From positions 1-64,000 of IMG/VR virus record IMGVR_UViG_3300000234_000002: a stretch of DNA of 64,000 nucleotides, one strand, 5' to 3'. How positions within the stretch are numbered: the stretch's first letter is position 1; every line of letters starts with the position of its first letter. This stretch comes from a virus. The notes under the pieces are model-generated. The model did not search any database, was not told where the DNA came from, and was given only the letters and a program-made list of their open reading frames with translations. The position numbers and the translations under genes were made by a program. This document shows, piece after piece, positions 16,559 to 44,333 of the stretch.

Positions 16559-16678
16559 ATGAAGCCCTCGCAAGTTGCCACTGAACTCCGTAAAATTGCT
16601 GCCGCTATCGAGGCGTCGAAGACGCCTGATAAGACGAAGGTCGCGTCAGCCATAAAGGGTCTTGTAAAAAAGATCGCT
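16559..16678 (+). repeat. 120-bp leader repeat, copy A
   Basis: atgaagccctcgcaagttgccact...aaaaagatcgct; matches five other copies. Confidence 0.97.
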
Positions 16679-16810
16679 AATGACGAAATGACTGAAGAGG
16701 AAAAACTTTTAGAAAAAGGTATAACGCCTGGTCAAAGGAAAAAAACGGAAGCGCCTGGACATTCGACTGAAGAGCTAGAAGAAGACGGCGTATTCGACGA
16801 CGAATTTTGA
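16559..16810 (+). CDS. leader-family protein A (40-aa leader + 43-aa acidic cargo)
   Basis: Start revised to ATG 16559, where the shared leader begins; cargo has 15 D/E in 43 aa. Confidence 0.8.
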   Translation: MKPSQVATELRKIAAAIEASKTPDKTKVASAIKGLVKKIANDEMTEEEKLLEKGITPGQRKKTEAPGHSTEELEEDGVFDDEF

Positions 16811-16817
16811 GATAAGA

Positions 16818-16851
16818 AATTGTGGGGCCATAACTTTATGGCCCCACAATT
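16818..16851. terminator. perfect inverted repeat between convergent genes, probable bidirectional terminator
   Basis: aattgtggggccataa-ct-ttatggccccacaatt. Confidence 0.8.
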
Positions 16852-16854
16852 ATA

Positions 16855-17166
16855 TCACCACCTATAAATGGAACGTTCAGATCCCTGGTCGGGTTCAATA
16901 TCGTCATCTTCATCATTTGGTTTTATGATTTCGCGGCGTCTTATAGGATTTACAATTGTTACTGTTAATTTGAATTCAGGCTTAAAACTGTGGTTGCAAG
17001 TTCCGCAACCACAAGAAAGTATCCATATACCAGGACTTGGATTGGGATTTCCAACGTCAATGTCATAATCGTCAGCGTAAGTGTTAACATCATTTTTACA
17101 TTTTGGGCATGAAACAACACTTGGAAGTCCCAACATCATTTCTAGATTCAAATTATATCCCATCAT
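16855..17166 (-). CDS. small Zn-ribbon-like protein
   Basis: CPKC...CGTC; the upstream box gTATTAT favours the second ATG (17163). Confidence 0.6.
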   Translation of the reverse strand: MMGYNLNLEMMLGLPSVVSCPKCKNDVNTYADDYDIDVGNPNPSPGIWILSCGCGTCNHSFKPEFKLTVTIVNPIRRREIIKPNDEDDDIEPDQGSERSIYRW

Positions 17167-17185
17167 AAATAATACACCAAAAAGA

Positions 17186-17214
17186 TTTCAGGGGCGATAA
17201 TTTCGCCCCTGAAA
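17186..17214 (-). terminator. intrinsic terminator after the tail tube gene
   Basis: tttcaggggcga-N5-tcgcccctgaaa, followed by a T run on the minus strand. Confidence 0.8.
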
Positions 17215-17237
17215 CTCCGTGGAGACCGAATTTAAAA

Positions 17238-17930
17238 TTAACGAATACCACCACCGGGAACAGTGAAGAGACGAGATCCAGAACCGGGTTGGATGATCGG
17301 GTTGTTACCAGCGTCAAGGAGATCGCCGTAAGTATCAACCGAGTTACCAAAGTTCGTGAATCCGTCCGTCACGTCAGTTGCCATTGCCTGGCAATCTTCC
17401 AAAACGATGGCAGAATCGCCAGGGAAAGAAACCGAATAGCTGTTTATCCAGCAGGCTTCGAAGTATGTGACCATGGCGTAATTGGCACCATCAGTCTCAG
17501 TTGTCTTCTTGAAGATCGCCGCCTGATCGATGGCGGTCACAAGCTCCGAGAACACAAGCTCCGAGCGGATGTCAAACGGCCATTTGTGATGGCGAAGAGA
17601 GCGGACAAGACCATCAATACCACCTCTGTAACCGAGTTCCTGGACTATGCCAGCAGTGTACATGAGAGTGCGGTTGAGGGTCAAAGAAGCCGGTTCGGTA
17701 ACACCAGGAACGAGTTCCACAACTCGGTCACCGAAACCAACACCACGAACCGGATCGACTGAACGACTTTCCGAAAAGTCGAAAGTCGAAAGAACACCAA
17801 CTTGTTTCTGAGAAGGGGCTCCAGTGGTATAAGGCTTAGAAAAAACGCGATTCTTTTGGCTTATGGCCACCCTGGTGTTTGGTGAAGATCCTTTTCTATA
17901 AATCTGAGGTACGTCGGCTTCTCTTGACAT
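17238..17930 (-). CDS. tail tube protein
   Basis: VGVLSTFDFSESR..VRGVGFGD..ELVPG..LTLNR..PFDI..YFEACWINSYSVSF..E; SD (GAGGAG); GC-richer codons. Confidence 0.85.
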   Translation of the reverse strand: MSREADVPQIYRKGSSPNTRVAISQKNRVFSKPYTTGAPSQKQVGVLSTFDFSESRSVDPVRGVGFGDRVVELVPGVTEPASLTLNRTLMYTAGIVQELGYRGGIDGLVRSLRHHKWPFDIRSELVFSELVTAIDQAAIFKKTTETDGANYAMVTYFEACWINSYSVSFPGDSAIVLEDCQAMATDVTDGFTNFGNSVDTYGDLLDAGNNPIIQPGSGSRLFTVPGGGIR

Positions 17931-18010
17931 TTGGTCTCCTCATTCCAACAATAATCAAAAATTTATTTAATAAATGTGGAAATTTCAAATATTTTAGTGT
18001 AACCTATCAG

Positions 18011-18520: not shown

Positions 18521-18662
18521 CTTGTAGGTTTTTATTCTTCTATTGTTGAGTGATTTCACTTCATAAAATCGCCTTAGAGTCTAATATTGATCTGCTATTA
18601 TATTAAAAGCTATTCTTATAAAAGTTCTTGTTCAAATCTTTACCAAAACTTGGTCCTCTATC

Positions 18663-18701
18663 GGGTCAAGGTCAACAAGGTGAAATATATGACCTTGACC
18701 C
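18663..18701. terminator. 12-bp inverted repeat in a convergent intergenic region
   Basis: gggtcaaggtca-N15-tgaccttgaccc. Confidence 0.5.
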
Positions 18702-18799
18702 AAACACTGAACTTTAGATGATAACGTTCGTGAAGCCTTAACCTAATTATCTAAAGTTCAGTGAAATGGAAGACTTAGACAAATAGTGGTTTAGGATAA

Positions 18800-19270
18800 T
18801 CATCCTATAGCAGCTAACTCTTCAGCAACAGCTCTGGTAGCTCCACTCATTGGTCCTTCATAAACGGGAGCTTGACCCATGGCGTCTTGCTCACTCATAC
18901 CGGCGTAAATTTTTACGCCCCTAGGTGACTTTTCAACAAGCCAAACTGGAGATTCAGAGTTTACCCAAACCGAACCCCAACCAGCTTCGTATAAACCTTC
19001 CCCATCAACTACCATTCTATTACTTAAGGCGTTCCTCAGTCCATACTCGATGGTAATTTCTGGATAATTCGAAACAGTTCCCATGTCAACAGGGCATTCT
19101 TCGATTATGGAAGTGTTGAAATTAGAAATATTCAACACAGTCTCTGAAGCCGTGATTGACCTAATTATCTTCTTTAGCTCTTGTGCGACAACACCCCGTT
19201 CAGGTCGAACGGAATTTTGAATCTTTGCCGCTATTTTTCGGAGTTCGGATGCAACCTTGCTTGGTTTCAT
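18800..19270 (-). CDS. leader-family protein B (diverged leader + unrelated cargo)
   Basis: MKPSKVASELRKIAAKIQNSVRPERGVVAQELKKIIRSITA aligns without gaps to the consensus leader. Confidence 0.8.
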   Translation of the reverse strand: MKPSKVASELRKIAAKIQNSVRPERGVVAQELKKIIRSITASETVLNISNFNTSIIEECPVDMGTVSNYPEITIEYGLRNALSNRMVVDGEGLYEAGWGSVWVNSESPVWLVEKSPRGVKIYAGMSEQDAMGQAPVYEGPMSGATRAVAEELAAIG

Positions 19271-19323
19271 GTAAAAAATTATTAAAAAAATCTAAGTTTA
19301 GTTTGTTTATGTAAATTTAATAT

Positions 19324-19593: not shown

Positions 19594-19623
19594 ATTTTAT
19601 TTCAGTGTATTTATTATTTAATA

Positions 19624-20508: not shown

Positions 20509-20545
20509 GTTTTTCCACTTCATGAAAGTTCTGGGGAGATAAAAC

Positions 20546-20965
20546 TCAACCTGAATTTTCAGAAGTCTCAATTATATCACAAAGTAAAGAATCTAGATAG
20601 TGATGAGAAAATTCGTCACCAAGAAAACCTAACGTCTGACTATCTCCCCATCTTTCATCAGATATTTCAACACCATCACAGGTAAAAACACCATCAGTGT
20701 TGTTTTTATCGAGTCGTCCATCAAATGTGCATTTTCTTCCATCGTGAAGAGTGAATTCAAAATATCCATCAATTATATCAAATGATTTATCTTTTTGGCT
20801 AATATATTCTCGAATTTTCACAACATTTGGGGTGAATAAATTTCCGGCGATCTTCTTAACAAGACCCTTTATAGCGCTTGCGACCCTCGCCTTATCAGGC
20901 GTCTTCGACGCCTCGATAGCGGCAGCGATTTTTCTTAACTCAGTGGCAACTTGCGAGGGCCTCAT
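20546..20965 (-). CDS. leader-family protein C
   Basis: Start revised to ATG 20965; leader + 99-aa unrelated cargo. Confidence 0.8.
   Translation of the reverse strand: MRPSQVATELRKIAAAIEASKTPDKARVASAIKGLVKKIAGNLFTPNVVKIREYISQKDKSFDIIDGYFEFTLHDGRKCTFDGRLDKNNTDGVFTCDGVEISDERWGDSQTLGFLGDEFSHHYLDSLLCDIIETSENSG
20846..20965 (-). repeat. 120-bp leader repeat, copy C
   Basis: 17 differences from copy A by hand alignment. Confidence 0.95.
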
Positions 20966-20982
20966 TGTGTTTCTTTTATCCG

Positions 20983-21007
20983 AGCTGCGGATCAAAGCTG
21001 CGGATCA
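20983..21007. repeat. 12-bp direct repeat (13-bp period) at the junction of two leader genes
   Basis: agctgcggatca-a-agctgcggatca. Confidence 0.85.
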
Positions 21008-21993
21008 CTAAACAAAAGACCGTCAATTTTTCCATCAATATTAATTAACTCCGATGAAGCTTTTACTAGAACATTTTGCTGACGAATGTAAAGACTTTCA
21101 ATTTCATTTATAACATCATCGCCAAGATGACTGAATTCAGACCTCACATAATTCATATTTAATGGCACAACAGCCTCTGATAAAGCTTCCAAAGCATAAC
21201 CTGCACCCTCAAAGTCATTTAAAAATTTAGTAGCAAGGTTATTAGCATAAGATACATATTCATCATTGTGAGCGATCTTTTTAACAAGACCCTTTATGGC
21301 TGAAGCGACCTTCGTCTTATCAGGCGTCTTCGACGCCTCGATAGCGGCAGCAATTTTTCTTAGCTCAGTGGCAACTTGCGAGGGCTTCATGACATTTCCT
21401 TTATCCGAAGAAGTTTTCGTTTCGAGAACGTCCTTCAAAATTTCATTGAGGTCATTATCAAGTTCTAGCTTTGCAGCTTTTACCTTTTCAATATAACTAT
21501 CGTAAACTTTCTTTAATTTTAGCGCTTCATATTCTTCGACTCTCGGATGGTCGGCTTTAGGGAAACGCTTCAAACAAGAATCATAAGTTTTATACGCAGC
21601 ATTGTAAGCATCGTTAAATTTTGGAACGAACGACTTATGGAATTTACTGAAGAACTTATTGGCCGAGTTATTCCACTCGGACATTGAGTCTTTCTCTATA
21701 TTTTCTTTAACCTGAGTTACAATGTCTTTCCCTTTAGCGGAAAGGTATTTCTGAGCGATTCTTTTGGACACTAAGCTATTGGATGACACTTGTGAATTCC
21801 CAACTTCTTTTTGTGCCCAAGAATCACCTTCAGGAGTATTGTAGACCAGACATTTATAACCTTGAATTTTCAAGTATCCGGAGAATGTTGAATCTCTAAC
21901 AACATTCTCCGGTACATTCTTAACATCCCACTGGCCGTCAGGCTGTAAATGGAAACCGAGACCCGACGTCATTTTAAAATCGTCTGATAACAT
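20992..21993 (-). CDS. 333-aa protein with an internal leader copy D; probable second start at 21390
   Basis: Leader in frame at aa 202-241; AAGGA precedes the internal ATG. Confidence 0.75.
   Translation of the reverse strand: MLSDDFKMTSGLGFHLQPDGQWDVKNVPENVVRDSTFSGYLKIQGYKCLVYNTPEGDSWAQKEVGNSQVSSNSLVSKRIAQKYLSAKGKDIVTQVKENIEKDSMSEWNNSANKFFSKFHKSFVPKFNDAYNAAYKTYDSCLKRFPKADHPRVEEYEALKLKKVYDSYIEKVKAAKLELDNDLNEILKDVLETKTSSDKGNVMKPSQVATELRKIAAAIEASKTPDKTKVASAIKGLVKKIAHNDEYVSYANNLATKFLNDFEGAGYALEALSEAVVPLNMNYVRSEFSHLGDDVINEIESLYIRQQNVLVKASSELINIDGKIDGLLFSDPQL
21271..21390 (-). repeat. 120-bp leader repeat, copy D (intragenic)
   Basis: Direct sequence match. Confidence 0.97.
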
Positions 21994-22008
21994 CAGGTTA
22001 CCCTAAAT

Positions 22009-24058: not shown

Positions 24059-25852
24059 TTAGAAGGACATAGAATCTAAATATTTATCCCAAATATAAAT
24101 TTTATCTGAGAAATTCATATTCAATGAAATACTCGCAACAGAAGATGACTTTCTTCTTTTAAGGGCTTTATCTGCATATCCTCTTAGTTCCTCGTTTTCA
24201 TTTTCTGAAATTTCTTCAAGTGTTTTTAAAGGTGTGTTTGGGTTGCCACAAAGCCATACTAATGTTATGAAATCACCAGTTTTTGAAAATTTATGGAGTA
24301 CTTCAGGAGGACTTTTTGGATTGCTGGAGATAGACTTAATGAACTCTGGGTCTTCAGTATCCGAAAAACTTTCAATTATTTCGACGGGAATTTTCGGGTT
24401 ATTGAGCAAAGAAGTTATTGAATGATGATCTCCATATTCAATGATTTCATTTGCGATTTCATTATTAATATTTGAATTGCGAGCAATGCCTCTTTGAATA
24501 TGGGGATCTTTTTTTCTTGCCAAAAGAATAAGAATTTCTGAAGAAACTTTTTTATTTGCACCTAAAGCGTTCAAAACTTCTTTGTTATGACTTTCTGAAA
24601 GTGCTTCAATAATTCCGGGTGTTATATTTTTATTACTAGCCAAACTTGCAAGAACTTCATGATCATCGTCCAATAAATTTTCAAGAATTTCAACAGGAGT
24701 CAAAGGATTAGATGCTATAACTGATCGAACTTCAAGGTCTTTGTCAGTTGATAATTTTTCGATAATACTCCGTGGTAAATTAGTATTAGTACCCAAAAAA
24801 GCACGAATCTCTGCACTTTCATGATTTGAAAATTTTTCTAAAGTATTAGCATCCGTATTTGGGTTGCGAACAACACCTGAAAGAACGTCATAATCTTCGG
24901 AGTTTGAAAGTTTTTCCAAAATGTATGGTGGGGTGCTGTGATTATAAGCAATACCAATATTAGTATTAACATCGTTTTCATCAAATAATAACTCAATCAT
25001 ATAGGGAGTCAAGTTTTCATTTGAAGAAATTGCTTTTTTTATTTCCTTATTGTCACTCTTAACAAGATCTTCTTGTTCTTTTTTAGATAACTCTTCACCC
25101 GACCCGAATTTTGCAAGTGCACTCTTTGGAGCATCTTTAGCTTTTTGATCGCAAACATTCATAATACTATTGAAACTATCACCTAAATATTTTGAAACTT
25201 TATAATCAGAAAGTTGTTTGTCATAGGAGTTCCAAAATATTTTCTCTTCAGTGTTATTATCAACGTCTCTTTGATAGCTTATCGCTATTTTATAAAGTGG
25301 ATCCGAAATATCGGATTTTTTGTTTAATACGAAAAAGAAAACACAATTTGATAATTGATACTCCTCATAATATGATGCACCCTTCATCGTTATACACCAT
25401 TTAGAGCCTTGACCGTGGAATATTGAAGCAGCTTTATTTTTTATCCACAAAACTTCAAAATCATCATTTTCAAAAATTTTCTCAGAATCAGGAACTTCTT
25501 CTAGTTTATAACGTTTTTGAACTTTATCTTTCCTACCCGATTGGTTATCTTTCAATTCAAATAACTGGTCTCTAAGTTCCGTAAATTCATTAAATTTATA
25601 CTGATAAATATCTCGCTTTTCTAAATTCTTCCCAAATTTCTCGAAAAGTTCAACAACATCAGCAATTTCAGCAGAAAGTGCTTGCCCAGACTCAAGTATT
25701 TTAAGTTCCCACTCAAGATATTTATTCTTCCCTTTTGTGGGATCTTTAGAACTAAAATACTCTATGTCTTTTTGATACTGTGGATATTTGACTAAAGCAT
25801 CTTTTTCTGATAATGCAGCGATAATTGAATATGCTATACGAACTAAATTCAT
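24059..25852 (-). CDS. alpha-solenoid (LRV/HEAT-like repeat) protein, paralogue 1
   Basis: About 13 units of A.NPNTP..ILEKLS.D; N-terminal domain with GSKWCITM. Confidence 0.8.
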   Translation of the reverse strand: MNLVRIAYSIIAALSEKDALVKYPQYQKDIEYFSSKDPTKGKNKYLEWELKILESGQALSAEIADVVELFEKFGKNLEKRDIYQYKFNEFTELRDQLFELKDNQSGRKDKVQKRYKLEEVPDSEKIFENDDFEVLWIKNKAASIFHGQGSKWCITMKGASYYEEYQLSNCVFFFVLNKKSDISDPLYKIAISYQRDVDNNTEEKIFWNSYDKQLSDYKVSKYLGDSFNSIMNVCDQKAKDAPKSALAKFGSGEELSKKEQEDLVKSDNKEIKKAISSNENLTPYMIELLFDENDVNTNIGIAYNHSTPPYILEKLSNSEDYDVLSGVVRNPNTDANTLEKFSNHESAEIRAFLGTNTNLPRSIIEKLSTDKDLEVRSVIASNPLTPVEILENLLDDDHEVLASLASNKNITPGIIEALSESHNKEVLNALGANKKVSSEILILLARKKDPHIQRGIARNSNINNEIANEIIEYGDHHSITSLLNNPKIPVEIIESFSDTEDPEFIKSISSNPKSPPEVLHKFSKTGDFITLVWLCGNPNTPLKTLEEISENENEELRGYADKALKRRKSSSVASISLNMNFSDKIYIWDKYLDSMSF

Positions 25853-29686: not shown

Positions 29687-31444
29687 TTACATAGTTTTCA
29701 GCCATCTGACTTTTTTAAGATTTTCTTCGACTCGAACTAAACCCGCGTCCTTATAAAAATCATTCTCTGACATGTGGGAATTTTTTGCCATATCCCAAAC
29801 TGTTTTCTTATTTATTATTCTATTATTTTCAACATCTAAATAGTGATATGATGGCGGAGATTCACCAAGTTTAGTCCAATTCGAAGCTAAATATATGGTG
29901 CCGTTATCACCAACATTAGGATCCGAATAACTAACCACAGCTTTGATTTCTTTATTATTTATTTTCAAAAGCTTCAAAAATTTTCTTAAGGAAAAGCTGC
30001 TCAAATTCTTCAGATGATAGCTTGGATGAACACAAAATCTTCTAAGTTCTCTTATATCTTTCGGACCGAATTTGGACCCGGTTTTATCATTAATACTTTT
30101 TATTGTTTGATTTCTACCAACTCCGCTGAAAGCAGATAAAACAACAAGTTTCCCATCAAGATATCCACCATAACATGTAACAACTGAACCTAAATTCCCA
30201 AGATAATGGTATAAAGAAAGGAATTCGTGGGCTTCATGATTTGGGCATTTTTTGAATTCAATATTTTTAAGCTCAAAATCAAAAGACTCGGACTCCTTAT
30301 GATATAATTTATTATCAAGAATTTTGGAGAGCTTGCCTAAGTGGATTTCGTGTTCATAAATCCAAAGAAGTTTGTGATTCGTATTATTCTCAACATAAGA
30401 AGACTTCGACCTATCACGAGGATTACCAAAGTATCCATACTCTTTAAAATTGTGAAAATAATCACCCTGGCACTCTATGAGCAAATTATGATCTGGAAGG
30501 AAAAAGTCAAAAGAGTAAGGACCTATATTATAATTATGATGGTAATTTACTTTATACCTGTTTTCAAGCAAACCCATAACAATTTTTTCAGTAGAAGGAA
30601 TTTTATTACTTGATCCTGGAATCGATAAAGTGCATTTTACTCCATATTTTCTTTCTAAAGTTTTTACAGTTTTTGCTCTTTTACATTCTTTTTTATTGCA
30701 ACACAAATCTTCATATTTTTCAGTATATTTAGAAAAAGATAAGTCAAACTGAGATTTACAATAATCACATAAAGCGCAAACTTTCTTAGCTGTTTTGAAA
30801 TTTAAAGATTCGACATCATACCCGAATTTTTCTAAAGTTTCCTTTGCAAGTAAATTCGGGTTTAACTTTGGTTTTGTTCTCTCAATAAAATCTTTGTGGA
30901 ATTGACTTTTAGATACGGTTTGATCTTTATAAGATGAAGATAAAGCGTCACATTTTTTACAAGCACCATTAACAGAATTCGTTATATTACACATTTTTGT
31001 TTCAAAAGTAGAATCACAAAATTCACATTTAGCTATAACATTTTTCCTAGAAATTGGTTTTATATTTGGATAAGAATACCCATATTTCATGTATGTTAAT
31101 TTATTATCCATATTGCGATATGGTACAGAGTTTAAAAATAAAAAATAGCTTCTCTTAGAATGAGTAATTTCTAAATTTTCATAATCTTCGGAAATATTTG
31201 AACAACTTTGACAATTTTCTTTTAAACAAAACAGGCATTTCTTTTTACTTTTGAAATAAGGAATGTCTAAAAGGTTTGTGGAACCATATTTCTTTATAAG
31301 AGTTTCCTTGTTTCTATTTAGCTTAACAAGATCTTTATCTCTTGATTTCCAAACTTCACAATTCTTAAAATGTCTTTTTAAAGTAGAAGACGAATTCGCC
31401 CCCCAACCACATAAACAATGGTGGGAGGCGAATTTTTCAGTCAC
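29687..31444 (-). CDS. Zn-finger repeats + Vsr/DUF559-like endonuclease + Mom-like GNAT domain (Hef-like homing endonuclease architecture)
   Basis: CxxC repeats; YSFDFF..LLIECQGDYFH..D..K..IYEHE; C-terminal YHYLG..ELRRFC..VVSYSD..GTIYLASNW. Confidence 0.75.
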   Translation of the reverse strand: MTEKFASHHCLCGWGANSSSTLKRHFKNCEVWKSRDKDLVKLNRNKETLIKKYGSTNLLDIPYFKSKKKCLFCLKENCQSCSNISEDYENLEITHSKRSYFLFLNSVPYRNMDNKLTYMKYGYSYPNIKPISRKNVIAKCEFCDSTFETKMCNITNSVNGACKKCDALSSSYKDQTVSKSQFHKDFIERTKPKLNPNLLAKETLEKFGYDVESLNFKTAKKVCALCDYCKSQFDLSFSKYTEKYEDLCCNKKECKRAKTVKTLERKYGVKCTLSIPGSSNKIPSTEKIVMGLLENRYKVNYHHNYNIGPYSFDFFLPDHNLLIECQGDYFHNFKEYGYFGNPRDRSKSSYVENNTNHKLLWIYEHEIHLGKLSKILDNKLYHKESESFDFELKNIEFKKCPNHEAHEFLSLYHYLGNLGSVVTCYGGYLDGKLVVLSAFSGVGRNQTIKSINDKTGSKFGPKDIRELRRFCVHPSYHLKNLSSFSLRKFLKLLKINNKEIKAVVSYSDPNVGDNGTIYLASNWTKLGESPPSYHYLDVENNRIINKKTVWDMAKNSHMSENDFYKDAGLVRVEENLKKVRWLKTM

Positions 31445-31457: not shown

Positions 31458-34400
31458 TTAGGATCTAACGCGGACACTCAAAGTGGCCACGATGTATTCA
31501 AGCGGAAAGACCGGGACGTAGATAGCAGATACTCTGAGTATCGTTGGGTCGTTCTCGTCAGAAGCCACCTCAATACCAGCAACGGAAGTAACGATTTGCT
31601 GATCGATCAGAGTGGTGAAAGCGCCACTAATGGCGGTCTCAACGCTCTTGATGAGGTTACCGGTTAACTTCTGTCCGATGTAAGGGTCGAGAACCTGACG
31701 GAGAACCTTCTGTACGTATTGGATGGTAAGGACGACCGAAGGAGTTCTCGTGAGAACCGAGTCAACGTTCGTGGTAAGAGCGTGTCGAACTCTGAGACCA
31801 GCCTGAACCTGCTCAATGATCGTTACGCCGTTAACCGCGATTTGGTTGGCTTCAGTCGGGTCAAGAACTCTTCCGATTCTTCGGAATCCCTGTATGGACC
31901 TTCTGGTAAGAGGGCTGGCGACATCAAAGGTCGGATTACAGGTCGAGGCGGCGTAAGCAGCGGCGGCGTAAGTTCCATCAACGAGTTGATCAACCAAATT
32001 ACCAAGAGAATCCTGGACCGAGATTACGAAAGAGTCAGGGTAAACGACAGTTACGAGTTCCGAGTTCAAAGATCTTGCTATGGACTGAACTCCAAGAGGA
32101 GAAGTTCCGGTAGCAACACCAACAACGCCAGTACGCTCGCCCTCCTGACGAGGAGCGCTCATGAACACACAGTGCTGGTTGAGGTAACCAAACACCTGAG
32201 TATTCGAAGTCAGAGGAATAACGACGTCAGCAGGGGTAGAACCACCAATCTTCTTTTTCTGCTCATCAATTGCAGAGATGTAAGCAGAAACCGGAGCTTG
32301 GCTGCTATTGGCGGATCTAAAGACTTGCTTGAGACCAACAACAACGGCACCGTTCAACTGAGCTATGCGAGCCGCGAGAGAAAGAGGACTATCAGGGGTC
32401 GGGGATCCGAAAGCCTGAATTATCTTCTTCGAGTCTCTGTAGAGCTGAGTCGAGATATCGCTCTTGGCGTAGTCGTAGGAAATGTAGTAAACATCTCCTA
32501 CCTGGGGCTCAATACCAGATCTATCGTAGGTTCTCACCAAGGAAGTCGTTCCAGGATTCATATTGAATGTGTTGTAGACTGTGAGTTCTACACCATTCAC
32601 TGCACGAATCGGAAGCGAAGCATCGGTTACGAAAGTCTGGTTAACTACGAGAGTGAAGCTTCCTCCGCTCGTATAATCACCAGAAGACGCCGGGAGAACC
32701 GTAAATCTCAGGCCCGTGGTCGAATCCGTGTAGGTCTGACCAGGGAATCCAGTTCCGTGAGAACCTAAGAGACCCTGAGAAGAAGCCACAGTGAATCCGG
32801 ACTGAGCATTCTCACCAATATCGCCCGAAGATCCAACAACAATCCCCAAACCAGTGTCTTCAATCAGAGCCGAGTTGGCAACCGAACTGAATGCAACGGT
32901 GGAGCTGTTTCCAGTAGATCTGGAATTGACGGTCAGGTAATTTCCGAGACCCTGGACCGGAACTTGGTAAGCAAAAGCCAAGCTGGAGAAAGAAGAATTT
33001 GCGTTTAACGCGTTAGCGATTTTCTTGGCAGTCGGCTGACTTCTCTGAACCGTGAGACCGGGCTCAAGACCGAGAACCAAATTCGCGTTACCGGAGGTCT
33101 TGATGGTTATCAACGAGTTTACGGTGTTGATTCTGGAGGTAAGAACCAATTTACCGCTATTGATTCCCTGGCCGGTTCTCGCAACGAGTTCGTTGAGGAA
33201 GAAAGCGGAAGGGTTGGTCGTGTCGTTGGTGCCGTGGACGTGGTAGATTCCCTGAATTTCAGCCAAGTGGAGAGGATACTTGGTCTGGAGTTCAGTAGTA
33301 AGAGTTATGAGAGTACCAGAGTTGGTCGCGTTCGCCGAAGTGATGTTGTTGGTTACATCATCAACAACGTGAACACCGGACTGCAGTAAGTGAAGATTGA
33401 AGTCGGCCTTAAGCTCATTCGCGAGAGCAAGGGCGGTAGGACTGTCAACAGCATTGGTGGCTGTGATTATGTTGACAGTATCACTCGTCAAGTGAGCAGA
33501 AGCCAAAACGCGGTGAGCGTTATATTTGGCCTTCAAGTCATTGAGGATTGGGTAGCAGTCAGATTCAATAACCGGCGCCGACGCGGGGGTCAGAGTATTG
33601 GTTGCGTCGTCCTTACCATGAACGCCACGCTGCGTTAAGTGGAGATTGAACGCATCTTTGAGATCATTGGCGAGTCTAACAGCAGTAACCAAATTCGAAG
33701 CGTTAGCAGTTGTTACGACATTCAGAGTGTCGTCGAGCTGATGGATACCAGCTTGACTCAAGTGAAGATTGAACTTGGTCTTTATATCATTTAAGAGCGT
33801 TAGAGAGTCACCAAGCGTAACGGCAACAGGCGCCGATATGGTGTTAACGGCATCTGCTATGACATGGAACACAGTAGAAACTCTGTGAGCTTCATACTTC
33901 GTTCTAAGGTTGTTGGCAAGAGCGATGACATCAGCCGTGTAAGTCGCAACATCGGCAGCCGAAGCATATTCGATGTAGACGTCGTTGATGGAAGTTACGA
34001 CGTCATTAAGCGTTACAGCACTTCCAGACGGAATGGTGGCAGTTACGTCAACACCGTCAACGTTGATTTGGACGGAATCATTGACTCCGGCAGTCACATT
34101 GTACGGCGCCGTCTTGGTCGCGACGTAAGAAGCAACCTGATTTATGGAGTTATAAGAACCCTGAGCGCTTGCGTTCGGAGAAAGACCAATCTTGGTCGAT
34201 CCATCAGTCTGTCCAGATCCAGTCGGAGGAAGAACGAGAACAGAAGAAACGAGACCATTGGTGAACGAAGGAACGCTTCGTCCACGAATCACGATGGCGT
34301 TTTCTGAACCGTAAGAAAGGACCGAGGCCAGAGCGTTGGGAGCGGAAGAAAGGAACGTTCCGGAACCGTCCGCGTGAACCTGAGTGTCGGCATCGACCGC

Positions 34401-36509
34401 AGCGTTTATAGCTGTAGCAACGTCCGAAAGAGTCGTAGCAGCCGAAATGTCGATGGGAGCAAGGGTAATCCCGTCGATCACAAGAAGCAATCTGTCAGTC
34501 GACAATGGAGTAACCGAAGCTACCGGATTACCCAAAAGAAGGGCTCGGAATGCGGTAGAAAGGTTAACAGTTACCGGTGCATTTCCGTCGATTACTACGC
34601 CACCAAAGTTCTGGCTGTAAGCGTAGATGTCGTACGGCTCCTGCTTCCCATTAGAGAAAGAAGCGTGGGTCGCGGGATTCAACGCGTTAGAGAACGTGAC
34701 CGTGACGGTCTCCGAAGTCGGATTTCCGGCTCCAGTGTGGATGACGTCAGGAGCCTGTTCAGAGCCGGAAGGCCACTGAATGGTTTCAGGAAGGCCGGAT
34801 TTGGTTCCGAACTTGGTTCCGTAAAGGTTTACGCCAGTGAGAGCGGAAGCTATCGTGTAAGTTCCGATAGAAGAAGGTCCAGGAGTCACAACGCTGAAAG
34901 TATAGGTATCATCTACTATTCTGTTATACCAGAAAGTAGCGAAAGCCTTATAATCAGCAGGAACCGGGCTCTTCAACGTGACTGTGTTGTTAGTTCCGTC
35001 AACTTCAGTCACAGCTACAGGAGGTCTGGAACTGGCATCTCTCCAGTTCTTACCAACATGAACTATGACAAGATCGGGTCTGTTGGTCGGAAGGTCAATT
35101 CTTCCGTTCGTAACAGTCTGATAAAGGGAGACACCAAGGGGCGTATCTCTACCATTTCCAGTGGTGGGGGTCAGGGGAAGAACGAACTTGCTCGTAGAAA
35201 CCGAGTTCAAAACCGGATCTACGAATCTGGAGCACTCAGAACCATAAACACGATTATCAACAAGCAAACCAACTATTTGGGTGCTGTTGAAAGCGGTATT
35301 TCCAGTCTGAACGCCGGAGGAAACGTTGAAAGTCGCCCCCCACTGAATTCTTGACTGATCACCATCATTGGTAACAACGAAATCTTGACCATTGATATAA
35401 TCACGACGACCCGGACCAATTCCGACGTTCCCAACATTCACAATGTTGGTATTCGGAAGGTAGTCAAAAGTGTCTTGGAAAGTATTGAAATAATAGGTGA
35501 TGTTGACAGTCGAACCGTCAGTCGGAGCGAACGGGAGAGTCACCAAGCTATTAAGACCGTCAACCGACGATGCAATAACAACCTGTCCGTTCACCAAAAC
35601 GCTAACCTTCGTAATGTCAGTCGTTATGATTCCGCCATCGGAACCATCAACAATAGGACCTTGGAAGGTTCTGAAAGACTTGTTGCGGGAAGTGGAAACT
35701 CCGGGATTAAACCCGAAAACGCCGTTGGCATTTCCACTACTTATCGTTATATTCCCGGCAGCGGTCAATCTGACGTGATTCAAGCCGTCAGCATCAACGT
35801 GGATCGAAGCAGTCAAACCGGTGATGTTAGCAGCGTTGACGTCATTAGCAACATCCGCAGCAGGACGGCTCGTACCGGCGGTTAAATTGACAGAGTAGGT
35901 GGTGAGATCGTTCACCACTAAAGTGAGAGTGTCGTTGGTTCCCGATACAACAGAGTAAGGCTCAGCTTTGGGAGCGGTAAGAATAGCAAGGCCAGCGCTT
36001 ATTTGCTGGGAAAGATTGTCAGTTATTCTTACGTCTTTTCGGTGGAAGAAATAATTAACAAGAACAACATCATCTTCATTCGGTGGAACCAAGATGGTCA
36101 CCAAGCCGTTTACGCCGTCGACGGACGAAACTATAACAGACTCGTTATTGACAGTAACAGAAACCTTGGTAACATCGAACGTGGTGAGACCACGACCCGA
36201 ACCGTCCACTATAGGAACGTTTCTTACCTTAAACTGAGTTTTGGAACCATCCTGGTTACCTAAAACAGGGTTTGAAAGAGTTCCACCAGAAACCCATCTA
36301 CCAGTAACGTCCTCACCAAAAATGGGAGTATCAGCTACACTGCTGGAACCTCTCACCATTTCATAGTTGGATTGCGATAAGGTCTCCTTACCGACACCGA
36401 TAAGAACGGGAACTCGAATTCCACCAAGGTTCTGAGCCGCAGAGGGATCAGCAGAAGTAGAAACAGTCACACCAGGAGGAGTGTAGGTGGGGAAGGGACC
36501 AATCGCCAT
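31458..36509 (-). CDS. tail sheath protein, unusually large
   Basis: N-terminal YTPPGV..PVLIG; C-terminal sheath core (SLAARIAQLNGA, PLTRRSI.GF, NGVTII, YIGQK, Y.PVFPLEYI); SD; GC-richer codons. Confidence 0.9.
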   Translation of the reverse strand: MAIGPFPTYTPPGVTVSTSADPSAAQNLGGIRVPVLIGVGKETLSQSNYEMVRGSSSVADTPIFGEDVTGRWVSGGTLSNPVLGNQDGSKTQFKVRNVPIVDGSGRGLTTFDVTKVSVTVNNESVIVSSVDGVNGLVTILVPPNEDDVVLVNYFFHRKDVRITDNLSQQISAGLAILTAPKAEPYSVVSGTNDTLTLVVNDLTTYSVNLTAGTSRPAADVANDVNAANITGLTASIHVDADGLNHVRLTAAGNITISSGNANGVFGFNPGVSTSRNKSFRTFQGPIVDGSDGGIITTDITKVSVLVNGQVVIASSVDGLNSLVTLPFAPTDGSTVNITYYFNTFQDTFDYLPNTNIVNVGNVGIGPGRRDYINGQDFVVTNDGDQSRIQWGATFNVSSGVQTGNTAFNSTQIVGLLVDNRVYGSECSRFVDPVLNSVSTSKFVLPLTPTTGNGRDTPLGVSLYQTVTNGRIDLPTNRPDLVIVHVGKNWRDASSRPPVAVTEVDGTNNTVTLKSPVPADYKAFATFWYNRIVDDTYTFSVVTPGPSSIGTYTIASALTGVNLYGTKFGTKSGLPETIQWPSGSEQAPDVIHTGAGNPTSETVTVTFSNALNPATHASFSNGKQEPYDIYAYSQNFGGVVIDGNAPVTVNLSTAFRALLLGNPVASVTPLSTDRLLLVIDGITLAPIDISAATTLSDVATAINAAVDADTQVHADGSGTFLSSAPNALASVLSYGSENAIVIRGRSVPSFTNGLVSSVLVLPPTGSGQTDGSTKIGLSPNASAQGSYNSINQVASYVATKTAPYNVTAGVNDSVQINVDGVDVTATIPSGSAVTLNDVVTSINDVYIEYASAADVATYTADVIALANNLRTKYEAHRVSTVFHVIADAVNTISAPVAVTLGDSLTLLNDIKTKFNLHLSQAGIHQLDDTLNVVTTANASNLVTAVRLANDLKDAFNLHLTQRGVHGKDDATNTLTPASAPVIESDCYPILNDLKAKYNAHRVLASAHLTSDTVNIITATNAVDSPTALALANELKADFNLHLLQSGVHVVDDVTNNITSANATNSGTLITLTTELQTKYPLHLAEIQGIYHVHGTNDTTNPSAFFLNELVARTGQGINSGKLVLTSRINTVNSLITIKTSGNANLVLGLEPGLTVQRSQPTAKKIANALNANSSFSSLAFAYQVPVQGLGNYLTVNSRSTGNSSTVAFSSVANSALIEDTGLGIVVGSSGDIGENAQSGFTVASSQGLLGSHGTGFPGQTYTDSTTGLRFTVLPASSGDYTSGGSFTLVVNQTFVTDASLPIRAVNGVELTVYNTFNMNPGTTSLVRTYDRSGIEPQVGDVYYISYDYAKSDISTQLYRDSKKIIQAFGSPTPDSPLSLAARIAQLNGAVVVGLKQVFRSANSSQAPVSAYISAIDEQKKKIGGSTPADVVIPLTSNTQVFGYLNQHCVFMSAPRQEGERTGVVGVATGTSPLGVQSIARSLNSELVTVVYPDSFVISVQDSLGNLVDQLVDGTYAAAAYAASTCNPTFDVASPLTRRSIQGFRRIGRVLDPTEANQIAVNGVTIIEQVQAGLRVRHALTTNVDSVLTRTPSVVLTIQYVQKVLRQVLDPYIGQKLTGNLIKSVETAISGAFTTLIDQQIVTSVAGIEVASDENDPTILRVSAIYVPVFPLEYIVATLSVRVRS

Positions 36510-38741: not shown

Positions 38742-39098
38742 TCACTCACGGGTACTGGGATGACCTAACTCTTCTATCATAGACATAATAATTTCCGTCT
38801 CTTCTTCCTGGTCTATATCCCCATCACTTTCACGAACCCAATCCGCATCTCTACCATCTTTTTCAAGGCTTATTTTATAAGTGTGCTCTTGCCCATCAGG
38901 AGTTTGGCTTGTGACTCTCCACTCTTCCCATCTGGGGTCTTCCTCAGGAAGAACTTCTTTTTTCAATATGGGGGAGTTAGCGATCTTTTTTACAAGACCC
39001 TTTATGGCTGACGCGACCTTCGTCTTATCAGGCGTCTTCGACGCCTCGATAGCGGCAGCAATTTTTCTTAGCTCAGTGGCAACTTGCGAGGGCCTCAT
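38742..39098 (-). CDS. leader-family protein E (78-aa acidic cargo)
   Basis: Start revised to ATG 39098 with GGAG upstream. Confidence 0.8.
   Translation of the reverse strand: MRPSQVATELRKIAAAIEASKTPDKTKVASAIKGLVKKIANSPILKKEVLPEEDPRWEEWRVTSQTPDGQEHTYKISLEKDGRDADWVRESDGDIDQEEETEIIMSMIEELGHPSTRE
38979..39098 (-). repeat. 120-bp leader repeat, copy E
   Basis: Direct sequence match. Confidence 0.97.
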
Positions 39099-39121
39099 GA
39101 AAACTCCGTGATATAAAAAAC

Positions 39122-40120
39122 TCAATCGCTCATTTGAGCGGCAGTGTGGAGACCGAGAGCAACAGCGTGCATAGGGTCAGATGCCTGTCTGATTTCCGAT
39201 ATTTCAATCGGAAATTTTGACTTCTTGGATTCAAAGATTTCAGTAAATTTATCCATGAAGCCCGAAGCCATGGAAGTTCCGCCAGAAACAATAATGGGAA
39301 TGGGAGTGGAAAGAAGAAATTCAGACTTTGCTCTATGAAATTGAGAAATAATCTTATCTATTGTATATTCGATAAGATTAGAAATGTAGAAAGAAATCGC
39401 TTCAGCTTCTCTTCCCCTTGGGTTCAAGATGTTAACCCCCGACTCTTTAATATGACAAGCCTTCGAAGCTGTGATCCCTAAAGCACTTGAAGCTCCAGCA
39501 TCAATCCAATCACCACCTCTCCCGAGCGAGAATTCCAAAGCGCTCATCGCGTTGTATGACAAACAAACATTTGTCATACCAGATCCATATGATATCCCAA
39601 GACCGGAGAATTTTGTGGATGAACCTTCGGAATAAACTATAGCGAGCGCTTCATTAACTGGCTCCGGGTCGTAACCAGTTTCTTGGATTATCTTTTTGAG
39701 AATGCTGGTGTGATAAATGGTATTGGAACCGGCAATATCAATTGCCGGGGCCGGAACAGAGAAACAGCATTTTTCGTTCGGGGACTTCGGCTTCCCGATG
39801 AGATTGTTAATTATAATGGCGATGACTTTCTGAGCCTCAACTTCACCGGACGAAACAACACCGCCTGCGAGGGGTCTGCGGATTTCTTTGTTGAAAAGAT
39901 TCGCAGAAGCTAATGCGTCATCACCAATAACATAAAGAGAACCATCAATTTCTACGAAAGCAGTGTTGCTGAGCTTGAGCATCCTCTTGTGCTCAATAGG
40001 CAAATCAAGGAAAGCATCCCTAACTCTTTTAATGGAAACTTTCTTTTCTGAACTTCGTGCAGCCACGAAGTTCATAGTTCCACAGTCTAGACCAACACCA
40101 AAGATTTCGTTTTTAGACAT
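39122..40120 (-). CDS. actin-like ATPase (MreB/ParM/FtsA superfamily)
   Basis: GLDCGT, IGDDA, RRPLAGGVV, FSVPA, VNEALA, GISYGSGMTN, GGDWID, VSGGTS, AVALG. Confidence 0.85.
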   Translation of the reverse strand: MSKNEIFGVGLDCGTMNFVAARSSEKKVSIKRVRDAFLDLPIEHKRMLKLSNTAFVEIDGSLYVIGDDALASANLFNKEIRRPLAGGVVSSGEVEAQKVIAIIINNLIGKPKSPNEKCCFSVPAPAIDIAGSNTIYHTSILKKIIQETGYDPEPVNEALAIVYSEGSSTKFSGLGISYGSGMTNVCLSYNAMSALEFSLGRGGDWIDAGASSALGITASKACHIKESGVNILNPRGREAEAISFYISNLIEYTIDKIISQFHRAKSEFLLSTPIPIIVSGGTSMASGFMDKFTEIFESKKSKFPIEISEIRQASDPMHAVALGLHTAAQMSD

Positions 40121-40154
40121 TTCGATAATCAAGTTACATCAAAGTTTTTATTTT

Positions 40155-40682
40155 TTAATATTTGGAATTCTCATATTCACGGAAAGATTCAGCTAAATCA
40201 GAAACTCCTGATTCTTCTAAGCCTTCAATAATATCATTTGAATGAAATGCTCCATGGGAGCAAAACCAAATAATAGTGTCTTCTTTTTGTAAAAACTCTT
40301 TCATAGAAGAATATTTTTTGAACGACTTCTGATCAAATCCTTCGACTTCATCCCAAGTTTTTGATCCAGATCCCAGGACGTCAACAGGACTACTGGATTT
40401 TAAACTTTTCGGGTCTGAATTAATAGCAACAAAAACTGAGTCAGTAAAAGCTGCCCAAATACTACCGCTAACCTTTAAACCTTCTTTCATTTCATAAACA
40501 AGGTCCATAGCAGAATAATCGCCGTTATTTATATCGATAGATACAACTGAGGGAACTTCAGATGAGATCTTTTTAACAAGACCCTTTATGGCTGAAGCGA
40601 CCTTCGTCTTATCAGGCGTCTTCGACGCCTCGATAGCGGCAGCAATTTTACGGAGTTCAGTGGCAACTTGCGAGGGCCTCAT
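40155..40682 (-). CDS. leader-family protein F (135-aa cargo)
   Basis: Start revised to ATG 40682; TATAAT 4 nt upstream. Confidence 0.8.
   Translation of the reverse strand: MRPSQVATELRKIAAAIEASKTPDKTKVASAIKGLVKKISSEVPSVVSIDINNGDYSAMDLVYEMKEGLKVSGSIWAAFTDSVFVAINSDPKSLKSSSPVDVLGSGSKTWDEVEGFDQKSFKKYSSMKEFLQKEDTIIWFCSHGAFHSNDIIEGLEESGVSDLAESFREYENSKY
40563..40682 (-). repeat. 120-bp leader repeat, copy F
   Basis: Direct sequence match; ends KKIS. Confidence 0.97.
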
Positions 40683-40720
40683 GAAAATTATAGAAAATAA
40701 AAAAATAAAAAACTCAAGAT

Positions 40721-41263: not shown

Positions 41264-41925
41264 AAACTCTTTTCTATCAGATCTCTTATGGCTGATGAAA
41301 ACTCATTCGCCACTAAATCCGATACTCTATTCGCAAATCTTCCTATTATACCTTCAAGTTGTTTAGACTTGTAAATGAATTCTTTATTTTCAGCCTCATA
41401 CTCCTCTTTGCGGGCTGCCATATAAGAGTTAGATTTAATTATTAACTTGCCTTGCCTAGTAAGAAGCATAGACTTAGGGGTCGCACTAATTTTTCTTTTA
41501 AAGTCACGGTGAGATGAAGTCTCTCTGGCGTCAAGAACCCTTCGGCGCCCATCATTCAATCCATCGCCGTAACGCTTTCTAGCGTCAACGGCACCGTAAC
41601 CTCTTCTCAGAACTCTCTGAACTCCGCCTAAAGGCTTTTTTCTGAAAGTTTTGTCGGGTTTCGGCTCTTCCTCTTCGTCAGATTCTTCTACTTTTATATC
41701 AGAGTTTTCTAAATCTATGCCCTCGATGTCAAATACTATCTCGAATTCTATTACATTATTCGTTATATTAGCTAAAACTTCATAATGTTTTAAATGTTCA
41801 AATTTGGTAATACCTTCGGACACCAATAATTTATCAAGCAAATCAATGCCATCCTTAGCTATTTCTTCAACTATTGAAGAAATAATCTGTTTTGAAATTT
41901 GGAGGAGTGATTTCTCGATGCTCAT
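41260..41925 (-). CDS. hypothetical protein, possibly virion morphogenesis
   Basis: 221 aa, translationally coupled in the neck cluster; basic central region. Confidence 0.6.
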   Translation of the reverse strand: MSIEKSLLQISKQIISSIVEEIAKDGIDLLDKLLVSEGITKFEHLKHYEVLANITNNVIEFEIVFDIEGIDLENSDIKVEESDEEEEPKPDKTFRKKPLGGVQRVLRRGYGAVDARKRYGDGLNDGRRRVLDARETSSHRDFKRKISATPKSMLLTRQGKLIIKSNSYMAARKEEYEAENKEFIYKSKQLEGIIGRFANRVSDLVANEFSSAIRDLIEKSL

Positions 41926-43241
41926 CTACGGTAAGTATTTTCAAAAGTTACAGTGTTACCACGAAATTCACGTTCATCAGGGATAGCGGATCTTTCCGAA
42001 ACCATAGGGTTCGAAGAACCTTCACCCGGAATAGTGAATCTTGTTTGAGGAGAATAAAGACGGGAAGTATTTATAATAGGAACTTTACTTCTTATATCTT
42101 GTTCATCAATGTGTGATATTATAAAAAACTGCTGAAGTTGCATGCCTCTAGCAGTTGGCATTTTAACCGAACCTATCGAATATCTGTCACCATTCAATTT
42201 TAAAATGAAATCCCTTTGAGACAATAGAGGTGAAGGACTAGTCCAAGTATCTTGTTCGTGTGATAACGTCTGTCCCCTATTTGTTAATTTATGAGCTTTA
42301 TTTGAGTCATCGGGAGCTATTATTATATCGTAAGGACCGTCGTAACCACCTATGAATCCGGTGGCGTAGCAAAGTAAACAATCAGATTGCGGCTGTCTAT
42401 GCGTAGAAGAATAACAACCACATCTAATTCCAAAATTCTTTCGAATATAAACTTTTACCCTTTCCCCACCTTGGTAGAGAAGGAATTTATTCCTTCTTAC
42501 AGCTTCTCTCCATATCCAGTCAAGCTGTTCAGTTTCGTAATTATTGGATATAGCTGATTTACTGAGTGAAGTTTCAACTTCATTACCACTAGAATCAACA
42601 CAAACTGAAGTTAGTCTATAATACACTCTCTGCCCCATGTTAGTTTTCACAATATTATTTTTATAACGATAAGTTGCTAAAACAACACTATTTTCATTCG
42701 GGACTACTGGAGGAATAGGTTTTTGGGAAACAGGATCAAAAGAACCATAATTTCTTATTTGAACTTGACCAGAAGTTGAGTCTATGGAATCTATGGAAGC
42801 CACAACACCATCAATTGTGACGTAAACATTAAGGCTAGCGCAGTCTGCTTCACCAAGCCAAGGCTGGATGACGATCGGTTTGTATCTAGTTTGAAAAACC
42901 CATTGGGCATCAGGGTCAGTAGTTCCCTTATATACAAATGAGTTCGATACATCTTCTTCCAAAGAAAGAGCGGTAATAGTTTCGTCTCTCCAAAAGTTAC
43001 TGCAAACCGGAATTAAATTTAATTTTTGAAAATCACCATAAGGAGAATCGAAAGCCCTATAAATATTAACGCCTATTATTTGGAACCTGGAATTTTGAAA
43101 TAAACTTGACGGGTCATCCCATCTTAAATCAATAATTCCAGGTTCAAGACCAGACTGACAAGAAAAATTCAAAGGAGGTAAAGGAGAGGCCGAATAGTCC
43201 TGTTCCAGTATATGGGGAGGTCTATCAGCAGGAGCTGGCAT
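41922..43241 (-). CDS. putative neck/head-completion protein with FN3-like N-terminus
   Basis: IDLRWD..GVNIYRA..YYRLTSV; GGERVK..RCGC..DCLLCYATGFIGGY..LSQRDFI..RYSI. Confidence 0.6.
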   Translation of the reverse strand: MPAPADRPPHILEQDYSASPLPPLNFSCQSGLEPGIIDLRWDDPSSLFQNSRFQIIGVNIYRAFDSPYGDFQKLNLIPVCSNFWRDETITALSLEEDVSNSFVYKGTTDPDAQWVFQTRYKPIVIQPWLGEADCASLNVYVTIDGVVASIDSIDSTSGQVQIRNYGSFDPVSQKPIPPVVPNENSVVLATYRYKNNIVKTNMGQRVYYRLTSVCVDSSGNEVETSLSKSAISNNYETEQLDWIWREAVRRNKFLLYQGGERVKVYIRKNFGIRCGCYSSTHRQPQSDCLLCYATGFIGGYDGPYDIIIAPDDSNKAHKLTNRGQTLSHEQDTWTSPSPLLSQRDFILKLNGDRYSIGSVKMPTARGMQLQQFFIISHIDEQDIRSKVPIINTSRLYSPQTRFTIPGEGSSNPMVSERSAIPDEREFRGNTVTFENTYRR

Positions 43242-43274
43242 AATAAAAAGATTTAATCAAGAATTGAAACAAAT

Positions 43275-43556
43275 TTAGTCTTCTTCGACTAAGACGTGAA
43301 GTGAATATCCACCGTTTTCACCAGGTTCAACCGATAGTCTTTGTATTTTAGATTTATCGAGGTCCTCATCGGACAAAACCTTCTGGACAGTTTGAACCTT
43401 AGCCTGATTAATGGTTTTTATTCTTGCGTCGAGTTCGTCGAGTTCATGCTTACGACGAACATACTCAACGGACCAATGCGTCAAAGATGCATCATACTCG
43501 GATATGCGGGTGAGGGTCTCGCCGGAAAGAGGAAATTTTTTAGTAACCATAGCCAT
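43275..43556 (-). CDS. small coiled-coil protein
   Basis: 93 aa. Confidence 0.6.
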   Translation of the reverse strand: MAMVTKKFPLSGETLTRISEYDASLTHWSVEYVRRKHELDELDARIKTINQAKVQTVQKVLSDEDLDKSKIQRLSVEPGENGGYSLHVLVEED

Positions 43557-43815
43557 AAGGAATAATACCAGGCTTAAATGTGATTTTTAACTCTAAATTA
43601 TCCGCCGAAGCATAATGTCTATCAAGTCCGTATTCGTTTTTCGTTATATTAAGAGCTGACTCTACGGCAGCTTCTATTTCAAATTTAAGTTTTTCTTGGA
43701 GAGCATTCTTATCAACATCGCCCGAAAAATGAACTTCGAAAGATAGACTACCTTTTATAAAATATTGGTTGTCGTCTTCACTGGCGATCTTAGTGGCAAT
43801 TTTACCAAAATTCAT
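43540..43815 (-). CDS. hypothetical protein with N-terminal KIATKIA
   Basis: 91 aa. Confidence 0.65.
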   Translation of the reverse strand: MNFGKIATKIASEDDNQYFIKGSLSFEVHFSGDVDKNALQEKLKFEIEAAVESALNITKNEYGLDRHYASADNLELKITFKPGIIPYGYGY

Positions 43816-43990
43816 AAAACATAATGAAAATTAAAAGAATAATACATGAAAATTAGTTATTAACTGTTAATTTAATCAACGCAGACTCTCGTCGAACACT
43901 ATGACTAATGCCACATTGTCTCGTACAAGTCTTCATCATTTCACGTATAATAATGATGCTTTTTATAAAATATTGGTTGTCGTCTTCACT
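43753..43990. repeat. 30-bp perfect direct repeat (43753-43782 and 43961-43990): duplicated, frameshifted 5' end of gene 43540-43815
   Basis: ttttataaaatattggttgtcgtcttcact twice; encodes SEDDNQYFIK. Confidence 0.92.
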
Positions 43991-44333
43991 AGCTTTTGCT
44001 TGCAATTTTAACTTCATACTGAAATTCATTGCTACCATCCCAATACATCAGAATATCTCTTAATAGATCCTCATCACCAACAACATTCTCTAAAACACCA
44101 TTTTGTAATTCATCAGTTGAAAAAATTGCAGAGTGTGATTCACCACCACACTTTGCAGTTATGAAATCAACATCACCTTCTTCAATTTTCACATCATAAA
44201 TTTTTGTCTTTGTAGCGATCTTTTTTACAAGACCCTTTATGGCTGAGGCGACCCTCGCCTTATCAGGCGTCTTCGACGCCTCGATAGCGGCAGCAATTTT
44301 TCTTAGCTCAGTGGCAACTTGCGAGGGCTTCAT
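43989..44333 (-). CDS. leader-family protein G (74-aa acidic cargo)
   Basis: ORF starts exactly at the leader; TACAGT 4 nt upstream. Confidence 0.85.
   Translation of the reverse strand: MKPSQVATELRKIAAAIEASKTPDKARVASAIKGLVKKIATKTKIYDVKIEEGDVDFITAKCGGESHSAIFSTDELQNGVLENVVGDEDLLRDILMYWDGSNEFQYEVKIASKS
44214..44333 (-). repeat. 120-bp leader repeat, copy G
   Basis: Direct sequence match. Confidence 0.97.

Follow-up and report, generated by a model that had tools for sequence, protein, structure and literature searches.

Evidence for gene conversion among copies of a 40-codon leader module in a viral genome

The IMG/VR virus record IMGVR_UViG_3300000234_000002 (84 kb) carries a 120-bp leader that is repeated in several genes with otherwise unrelated products. 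We analysed the first 64 kb of this record, referred to here as the window (64,000 nucleotides, GC content 39%, CheckV completeness about 20%). Seven copies of the 40-codon leader, named A to G, are found in the window, and repeat finding, protein search and low-stringency DNA search of the whole 84-kb record add none. Gene conversion among these copies is well supported by our analysis. The tests within the window support it moderately, and stronger support comes from the grouping of leaders by genome, from the identity of the module in copy D and from a 140-nt tract in a sister lineage. The first-pass annotation had proposed that the copies exchange sequence by gene conversion or crossover, and this proposal stands.

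The leader has a net charge of +6, while each cargo, the part of the protein joined to it, is acidic with a net charge of −9 to −14. The cargos of the seven proteins are unrelated. Homology starts at the ATG or a few bases before it and stops at codon 40 in every copy. Six close copies (A, C, D, E, F and G) share 86–97.5% nucleotide identity. Copy B is a diverged paralogue that is not homogenised, with 49% amino acid and about 48–50% nucleotide identity to the other copies.

Mosaic site patterns and formal tests

Among the six close copies 18 of the 120 sites are variable; nine of these are informative and 13 synonymous. Codon 2 is AAG in A, D and G and AGG in C, E and F. Codons 9–11 read GAA CTC CGT in A and F and GAG YTA AGA in C, D, E and G. 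Codons 26–27 are ACG AAG in A, D, E and F and GCG AGG in C and G, and codon 36 is GTA in A, E and G and GTT in C, D and F. These states had been listed in the first-pass annotation from a hand alignment, and checking against the sequence returned every one of them. All four combinations are indeed present for codon 2 versus codons 9–11 and for codons 9–11 versus codon 36, as had been claimed there. Thirteen pairs of biallelic sites are incompatible, and the Hudson–Kaplan Rm is 2.

Codon 29 (GCG, GCT, GCA or GCC), absent from the earlier list, co-varies with codon 36. Therefore, copies A, F, D and E form the full two-by-two set of a four-site left block (codons 9–11) and a two-site right block around an invariant core. 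Copy A reads AAG / GAA CTC CGT / ACG AAG / GCG / GTA, and copy F has the left block of A and the right block of D. Identical runs extend over nt 6–86 between A and F and also between D and E, over nt 34–122 between A and E, and over nt 34–117 between D and F. The core covers leader nt 34–75 (16592..16633 in the coordinates of copy A). It is common to A, D, E, F and G, and C departs from it at nt 39 only. Exchange inside this core would yield exactly the block picture of A, F, D and E, and the core is likely the exchange zone between left and right blocks. Copy C is the most divergent of the six close copies and has private synonymous patches, including a change from TCA to AGC at codon 30.

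The core contains a hairpin with a GC-rich 7-bp stem and a GAA loop, which is extended by TATC/GATA pairing (16606–16631 in A, the same codons in C to G). This hairpin is far more stable than synonymous recodings (z −4.4 to −5.8). In copy B the stem (19196–19212) is different and moved by about 5 nt, with a z of −3.1. A similar hairpin in the same register is found in the leader subfamily of the related record G002, and most relatives do not have it. The hairpin may serve as a recombination hotspot or as a regulatory structure, or it may result from high GC content at third codon positions (GC3). Promoter and terminator scans around the leader copies found no excess of sites.

All 105 unrooted topologies of the six copies were scored by parsimony steps. 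The best topology, ((A,F),((C,G),(D,E))), requires 26 steps against a minimum of 21, which agrees with the earlier claim that a simple duplication tree does not fit, and the five extra steps are located at nt 5, 87 and 108. In simulations on this tree with no recombination an excess of five or more steps was found in at most 1.5% of runs (P ≤ 0.015), and this includes simulations with only 25–40 sites free to vary or with strongly uneven rates. The pairwise homoplasy index (PHI) test proposed in the first-pass annotation was run as a PHI-like permutation of informative sites and gave p values of 0.001–0.016. The result of the Sawyer-type tests is divided: the sum-of-squares statistic (SSCF) is significant (p 0.015), and the maximum-fragment statistic (MCF) for the six copies is not (p 0.14). 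The variable sites are also clustered along the leader (p 0.006).

Concerted evolution and conversion tracts in related phages

A profile search with the leader retrieved 961 cluster representatives among 1.84 billion proteins. Among the relatives collected, 149 proteins match a simple module motif. The first module is N-terminal in 141 of these, 17 have two modules and 13 have a C-terminal module. Pfam and PHROGs hold no family for the module, for any leader protein or for any cargo, a search of the ESM Atlas gave no usable match, and a literature search by motif found no relevant paper. Six related records (G001–G006, 110–436 kb, two of them complete with terminal repeats) contain 5–11 copies each. 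The mean nucleotide identity among the copies within these records is only 51–68%, and the highest value, 88%, comes from a tandem cluster of G002. Cargos F, G, E and B have no match in G001–G004 and G006. An exact search of viral contigs for a 36-nt core returned nothing, and neither did a search of viral contigs for relatives of F.

The leaders group by genome and not by cargo homology. For shared residues, codon identity is 87% among the six copies and 38% between genomes. A maximum-likelihood tree built from leader DNA places the six copies in a single clade (support 100/99); the stem of this clade is long and its internal branches are very short. Homologues of cargo C are found in G002, P0074 and P0102, and a homologue of cargo E in P0104, each with its own leader. 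Of 40 residues, the leaders of these homologues share only 17–21 with the leader of C or E, and the leaders of C and E have 38 in common. At the DNA level, leader C and L027 of G002 share 60% identity. Copy D lies inside a longer protein, and its N-terminal domain (N-domain) has 39% identity to that of P0012. This alignment continues into a diverged internal module without Met. In contrast, the D module has 95–97.5% DNA identity to the N-terminal leaders A and E, start codon included.

Because cargos C and E and the D N-domain have homologues elsewhere that bear their own diverged modules, the leaders would have evolved in concert. To be noted, paralogous leader segments are closer to each other within a genome than homologous segments are between genomes. 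The leader–cargo fusions of C and E are, as judged from these comparisons, old and stable, and old fusions together with young, genome-specific leaders are read here as the signature of concerted evolution.

Tracts of exchanged sequence are visible in the sister lineage G002. The alleles of its gene X (P0154, P0074, P0153 and P0155) are identical at 101 of 101 cargo residues and differ at seven residues of the leader. Six of these seven variant residues match the neighbouring paralogue Y or W, and the seventh, I13V in P0155, is private. The difference between the leader (7 of 40 variant residues) and the cargo (0 of 101) is significant (Fisher p 1e-4). Furthermore, in contigs of three other samples gene X has a leader region (−24 to +116) with 100% identity to the Y leader region of G002, whereas X and Y are only 86% identical in G002 itself; the flanks and the cargo of X are unchanged in those three samples. 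This 140-nt tract between neighbouring leader paralogues is a real conversion tract, because an artefact would require the assembler to switch twice within 140 nt, and to do so the second time with no k-mer in common.

A contig of a fifth sample, L069 (Ga0315283), is without exactly the 465-bp leader-to-leader unit that holds cargo X. It consists of the upstream flank of X, one hybrid leader and the Y cargo. Such a deletion is the expected product of recombination between two leaders, although assembly collapse of the 140-nt repeat could also produce this structure. The first-pass annotation had further suggested that the leader acts as a handle for shuffling cargos between loci or phages. For the phage of the window such a role is no more than a possibility, and the single indel of L069 is the only hint in its favour. 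Frequent reshuffling of cargos is disfavoured because the C and E fusions appear old and stable.

Competing explanations and the process of exchange

Several points weigh against gene conversion in the window. Besides the maximum-fragment statistic, the 3SEQ-like triplet tests fall short of significance in G000 when Bonferroni correction is applied (0.57). The corrected triplet result for G002 is borderline (0.10), and the leader subfamily of G002 gives no significant PHI-like result because its sites are saturated. The informative sites collapse to about five independent blocks, and all five homoplasies fall on three single-base sites, one of which shows four bases; recurrent mutation at hot sites may explain them. 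The direct tract evidence stems from a different lineage than the phage of the window. The constancy of the core might reflect selection on the hairpin instead of conversion. The six close leaders have a GC3 of 52–60%, copy B of 40% and the cargos of 17–37%, and the high GC3 of the leaders could come from codon bias and not from biased conversion (the gene of a sheath-like protein in the window also has a GC3 of 49%). GC-biased conversion as the cause of the leader GC3 is kept only as a suggestion, since the six copies amount to about one data point and other genes are GC3-rich too. The within-window evidence for recombination is moderate because it comes from nine informative sites in about five blocks.

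A first rival explanation is a single duplication tree, ((A,F),((C,G),(D,E))), with recurrent mutation at nt 5 (K/R), at nt 87, which is four-fold degenerate and shows all four bases, and at nt 108. The confinement of the five extra steps to these three sites and the triplet tests that lose significance once corrected fit this explanation. Against it, five extra steps are rare in the tree-only simulations, even with 25–40 variable sites, and nt 87 and nt 108 switch jointly (GCG with GTA versus GCT with GTT) on both left-block backgrounds. A recent common ancestor of the whole genes is impossible, as the cargos have no relation to one another and the fusions are old in C, D and E at least, so the near-identity of the leaders already needs recombination. 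We therefore consider the single tree improbable.

Recent grafting is a second explanation, which we judge to have a small chance of being correct. One master leader would have been copied onto six existing genes like a small mobile cassette, and the differences would have arisen later or come from several masters. The tight clade of the six copies on a long stem would fit this scenario. The homology takes in 12–24 nt 5′ of the ATG in some copy pairs, and the GC-rich hairpin core resembles an element in its own right. However, cargos C and E and the D protein have homologues with the module in other phages. Thus these loci had leaders before, and the replacement of a leader by a leader is gene conversion. 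In addition, the module is a conserved protein domain in 961 clusters and not a non-coding repeat, and grafting alone does not give the two-by-two block pattern.

An assembly artefact, in which a short-read assembler threading a 120-bp repeat made chimeric haplotypes, is scarcely credible: the record is a metagenome assembly and the repeat is near read length, but each variable site lies at most 45 nt from unique flank (nt 5–39 upstream, nt 76–120 downstream), so that each state can be assigned to its locus with reads or k-mers of about 50 nt or more. Had the assembler taken a wrong path through the core, entire flanks would have been exchanged and the contig rearranged, with no new left/right combinations. 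Equivalent mosaics in the sister lineage are present in at least three independent samples, and an assembler could make them only by switching twice within 140 nt. An NCBI contig of 322 kb and the 84-kb IMG record encode the same seven proteins, yet the two may be one assembly. Three sequencing runs contain this DNA (X1, 0.99; X2, 0.93, soil, 2012; X3, 0.93, biofilm, 2014).

Gene conversion remains the explanation that we prefer, and it would operate as follows. The 120-bp leader would encode a small basic helix-turn-helix module that is fused to unrelated small acidic domains and carried by jumbo phages of one lineage with genomes of roughly 400 kb. Six of the seven copies would be homogenised by short-tract, mostly non-reciprocal homologous recombination between dispersed copies, i.e. 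gene conversion. Each event would replace part of one leader by the sequence of another, with tract ends inside the 120 bp or a few bases beyond, and many junctions would probably lie in the invariant core of 36–42 nt. The four-gamete mosaic would then be the record of overlapping partial tracts. The clustered, all-synonymous patches (codons 9–11, 26–27 and 29–31) would be remnants of older diverged leaders or imports from them. The synonymous patches, of which the left-block CGT to AGA change and the TCA to AGC change of copy C are examples, look more like parts of older or foreign functional leaders than like fresh mutations.

We infer that the process seen in the sister lineage also acted in the phage of the window. 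The exchange would run via the recombination-dependent replication of the phage, and a gene of the window that matches the PHROG exonuclease family phrog_284 might have a role in such recombination. Conversion without crossover is likelier, because copy A is inverted relative to the others and a crossover would invert 4–28 kb. A more far-reaching form of the idea makes the leader a dedicated cassette-exchange site. In this form the core hairpin would be a place of deliberate cleavage or stalling, brought about for instance by one of the HNH-Mom fusion nucleases that the window encodes beside copy G and elsewhere. Acidic cargos bounded by leaders might be injected anti-defence proteins, and their conversion, their deletion and their exchange between jumbo phages that infect the same cell would proceed at a high, programmed rate. 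We regard this dedicated role as a long shot.

Leader loci, module function and known systems

Copy A (16559..16678) is the sole copy on the plus strand. It heads the gene at 16559–16810, which has an acidic cargo of 43 residues. Two very strong terminator-like hairpins with stems of 15 bp and 13 bp, each followed by T runs, are located just downstream of this gene on the opposite strand (16818–16851 and 17185–17215, minus strand). All other copies are on the minus strand. Copy B (19151..19270) begins with the ATG at 19270 in the gene at 18800–19270, and copy C (20846..20965) with the ATG at 20965 in the gene at 20546–20965. Copy D (21271..21390, ATG at 21390) lies inside an open reading frame of 333 residues (20992–21993), where it forms residues 202–241 behind a conserved N-domain of 200 residues.

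The C gene (20546–20995, minus strand) and the D gene (20992–21993, minus strand) stand in tandem with starts 425 nt apart, and both have seven additional codons (S-S-D-K-x-N-x) in common directly before the leader Met. In P0012 the equivalent is one protein of 419 residues with the order N-domain, module, cargo, module, cargo. The C/D locus therefore looks like a split or fused two-module gene, since P0012 has the equivalent parts in a single protein.

Copy E (38979..39098, ATG at 39098) belongs to the gene at 38742–39098 and copy F (40563..40682, ATG at 40682) to the gene at 40155–40682, which has an acidic cargo of 135 residues. An actin-like gene with a strong match to Pfam Volactin (39122–40132, minus strand, E 5e-70) lies between the two leader genes, and leader gene E is located directly 3′ of it. 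Copy G (44214..44333, ATG at 44333) belongs to the gene at 43989–44333, directly 3′ of a HNH-Mom fusion gene (44357–46147, minus strand) that terminates 24 nt upstream of the leader. This fusion gene and another at 29687–31444 (minus strand) are both large, and each joins nuclease domains of the HNH or endonuclease VII type to a Mom-like GNAT domain. The 3′ end of leader gene G is overlapped by an open reading frame of 61 residues (43853–44038, minus strand). This frame and another of 91 residues (43540–43815, minus strand) have the motif ASEDDNQYFIK in common near their starts, and the smaller one may be a partial duplication left by rearrangement.

The genes near the leader copies are mixed and include a sheath-like protein, the actin-like protein, Mom-HNH, AAA and exonuclease genes. 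The sheath-like protein has 1683 residues (31458–36509, minus strand), the final 90 of which have a weak match to the C-terminal domain of the phage tail sheath (E 5e-5, under the Pfam cut-off). The GC3 of its gene is far above that of the neighbouring genes. Elsewhere in the window, two paralogous stretches (24908–25819 and 52080–52991) with 73–82% identity over about 900 nt lie exactly 27172 nt apart. The first lies within a protein of 597 residues with leucine-rich-repeat-variant domains. A gene at the window edge (62988–63991, minus strand) has long collagen-like G-x-y repeats.

Our best guess, which we hold with about even confidence, is that the module is a tag for docking or targeting that the proteins share. 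Its additional occurrence in internal, C-terminal and tandem positions is more in line with a general domain of this kind than with a strict cleaved signal. An AlphaFold model of the natural two-module protein P0007 has four helices, i.e. a helix-turn-helix twice, with a predicted local distance difference test (pLDDT) score of 72, and this model has no match in the PDB. A complex prediction with two leader copies scored 0.02, which gives no verdict either way.

The closest known cases are the concerted evolution of multigene families by gene conversion and the promoter early stem-loop (PeSL) cassettes of T4-type phages. Concerted evolution by gene conversion is known, for example, from bacterial tuf or rRNA paralogues and from cassette conversion of the pilS/pilE type. 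As in these systems, the leader paralogues are closer within than between genomes, mosaic tracts are short, homology boundaries are sharp and alleles differ by patches of paralogue sequence. Unlike in these systems, only a 120-bp module that heads unrelated genes is homogenised here, in a jumbo phage. Compared with pilS/pilE, there is neither a layout of silent cassettes and an expression site nor a sign that variation is the purpose. Gene conversion is a known process, acting here on a protein module outside curated families.

The PeSL motifs are, by the titles of two reports, non-coding composites of promoter and terminator (PMC2839356, PMC4122927). In both cases short dispersed repeats precede variable small open reading frames of a large phage, and homologous recombination between them has been proposed to bring about gain, loss and replacement of the intervening genes. 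The leader-bounded 465-bp indel of the sister lineage has the same geometry. In contrast to PeSL, the leader repeat is made of the first 40 codons of its genes, on which purifying selection acts at the peptide level. It shows no excess of promoter sites, and its hairpin lies inside the coding core.

Two further systems are similar in part. The T4 capsid targeting sequence and the head propeptides of giant phages also place a common N-terminal peptide on unrelated small acidic proteins (background in PMC5694885 and PMC10052503), and the six close leader copies have an A-I-E motif that is like a prohead-protease site (K-I-Q in copy B). However, the module has 40 residues and the T4 capsid targeting sequence about 10; in relatives the module is also internal, C-terminal and tandem, and copy D is internal. 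Polymorphic toxin and effector loci likewise combine a constant N-terminus, which is the recombination substrate, with an abrupt change to unrelated C-terminal domains. They differ in that the cargos here have 43–135 residues, are strongly acidic and match no toxin family, immunity genes are absent, and the genes are dispersed over a phage genome.

The leader would thus provide a clean natural case of concerted evolution that is confined to a 120-bp protein-coding module within a virus genome, with tracts visible between strains of a sister phage. The tracts show that short dispersed repeats recombine in these phages of roughly 400 kb, which points to a way in which small accessory genes could be gained and lost. 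A further outcome is a widespread module of 40 residues, which is present in 5–11 copies per genome and tags many small acidic proteins.

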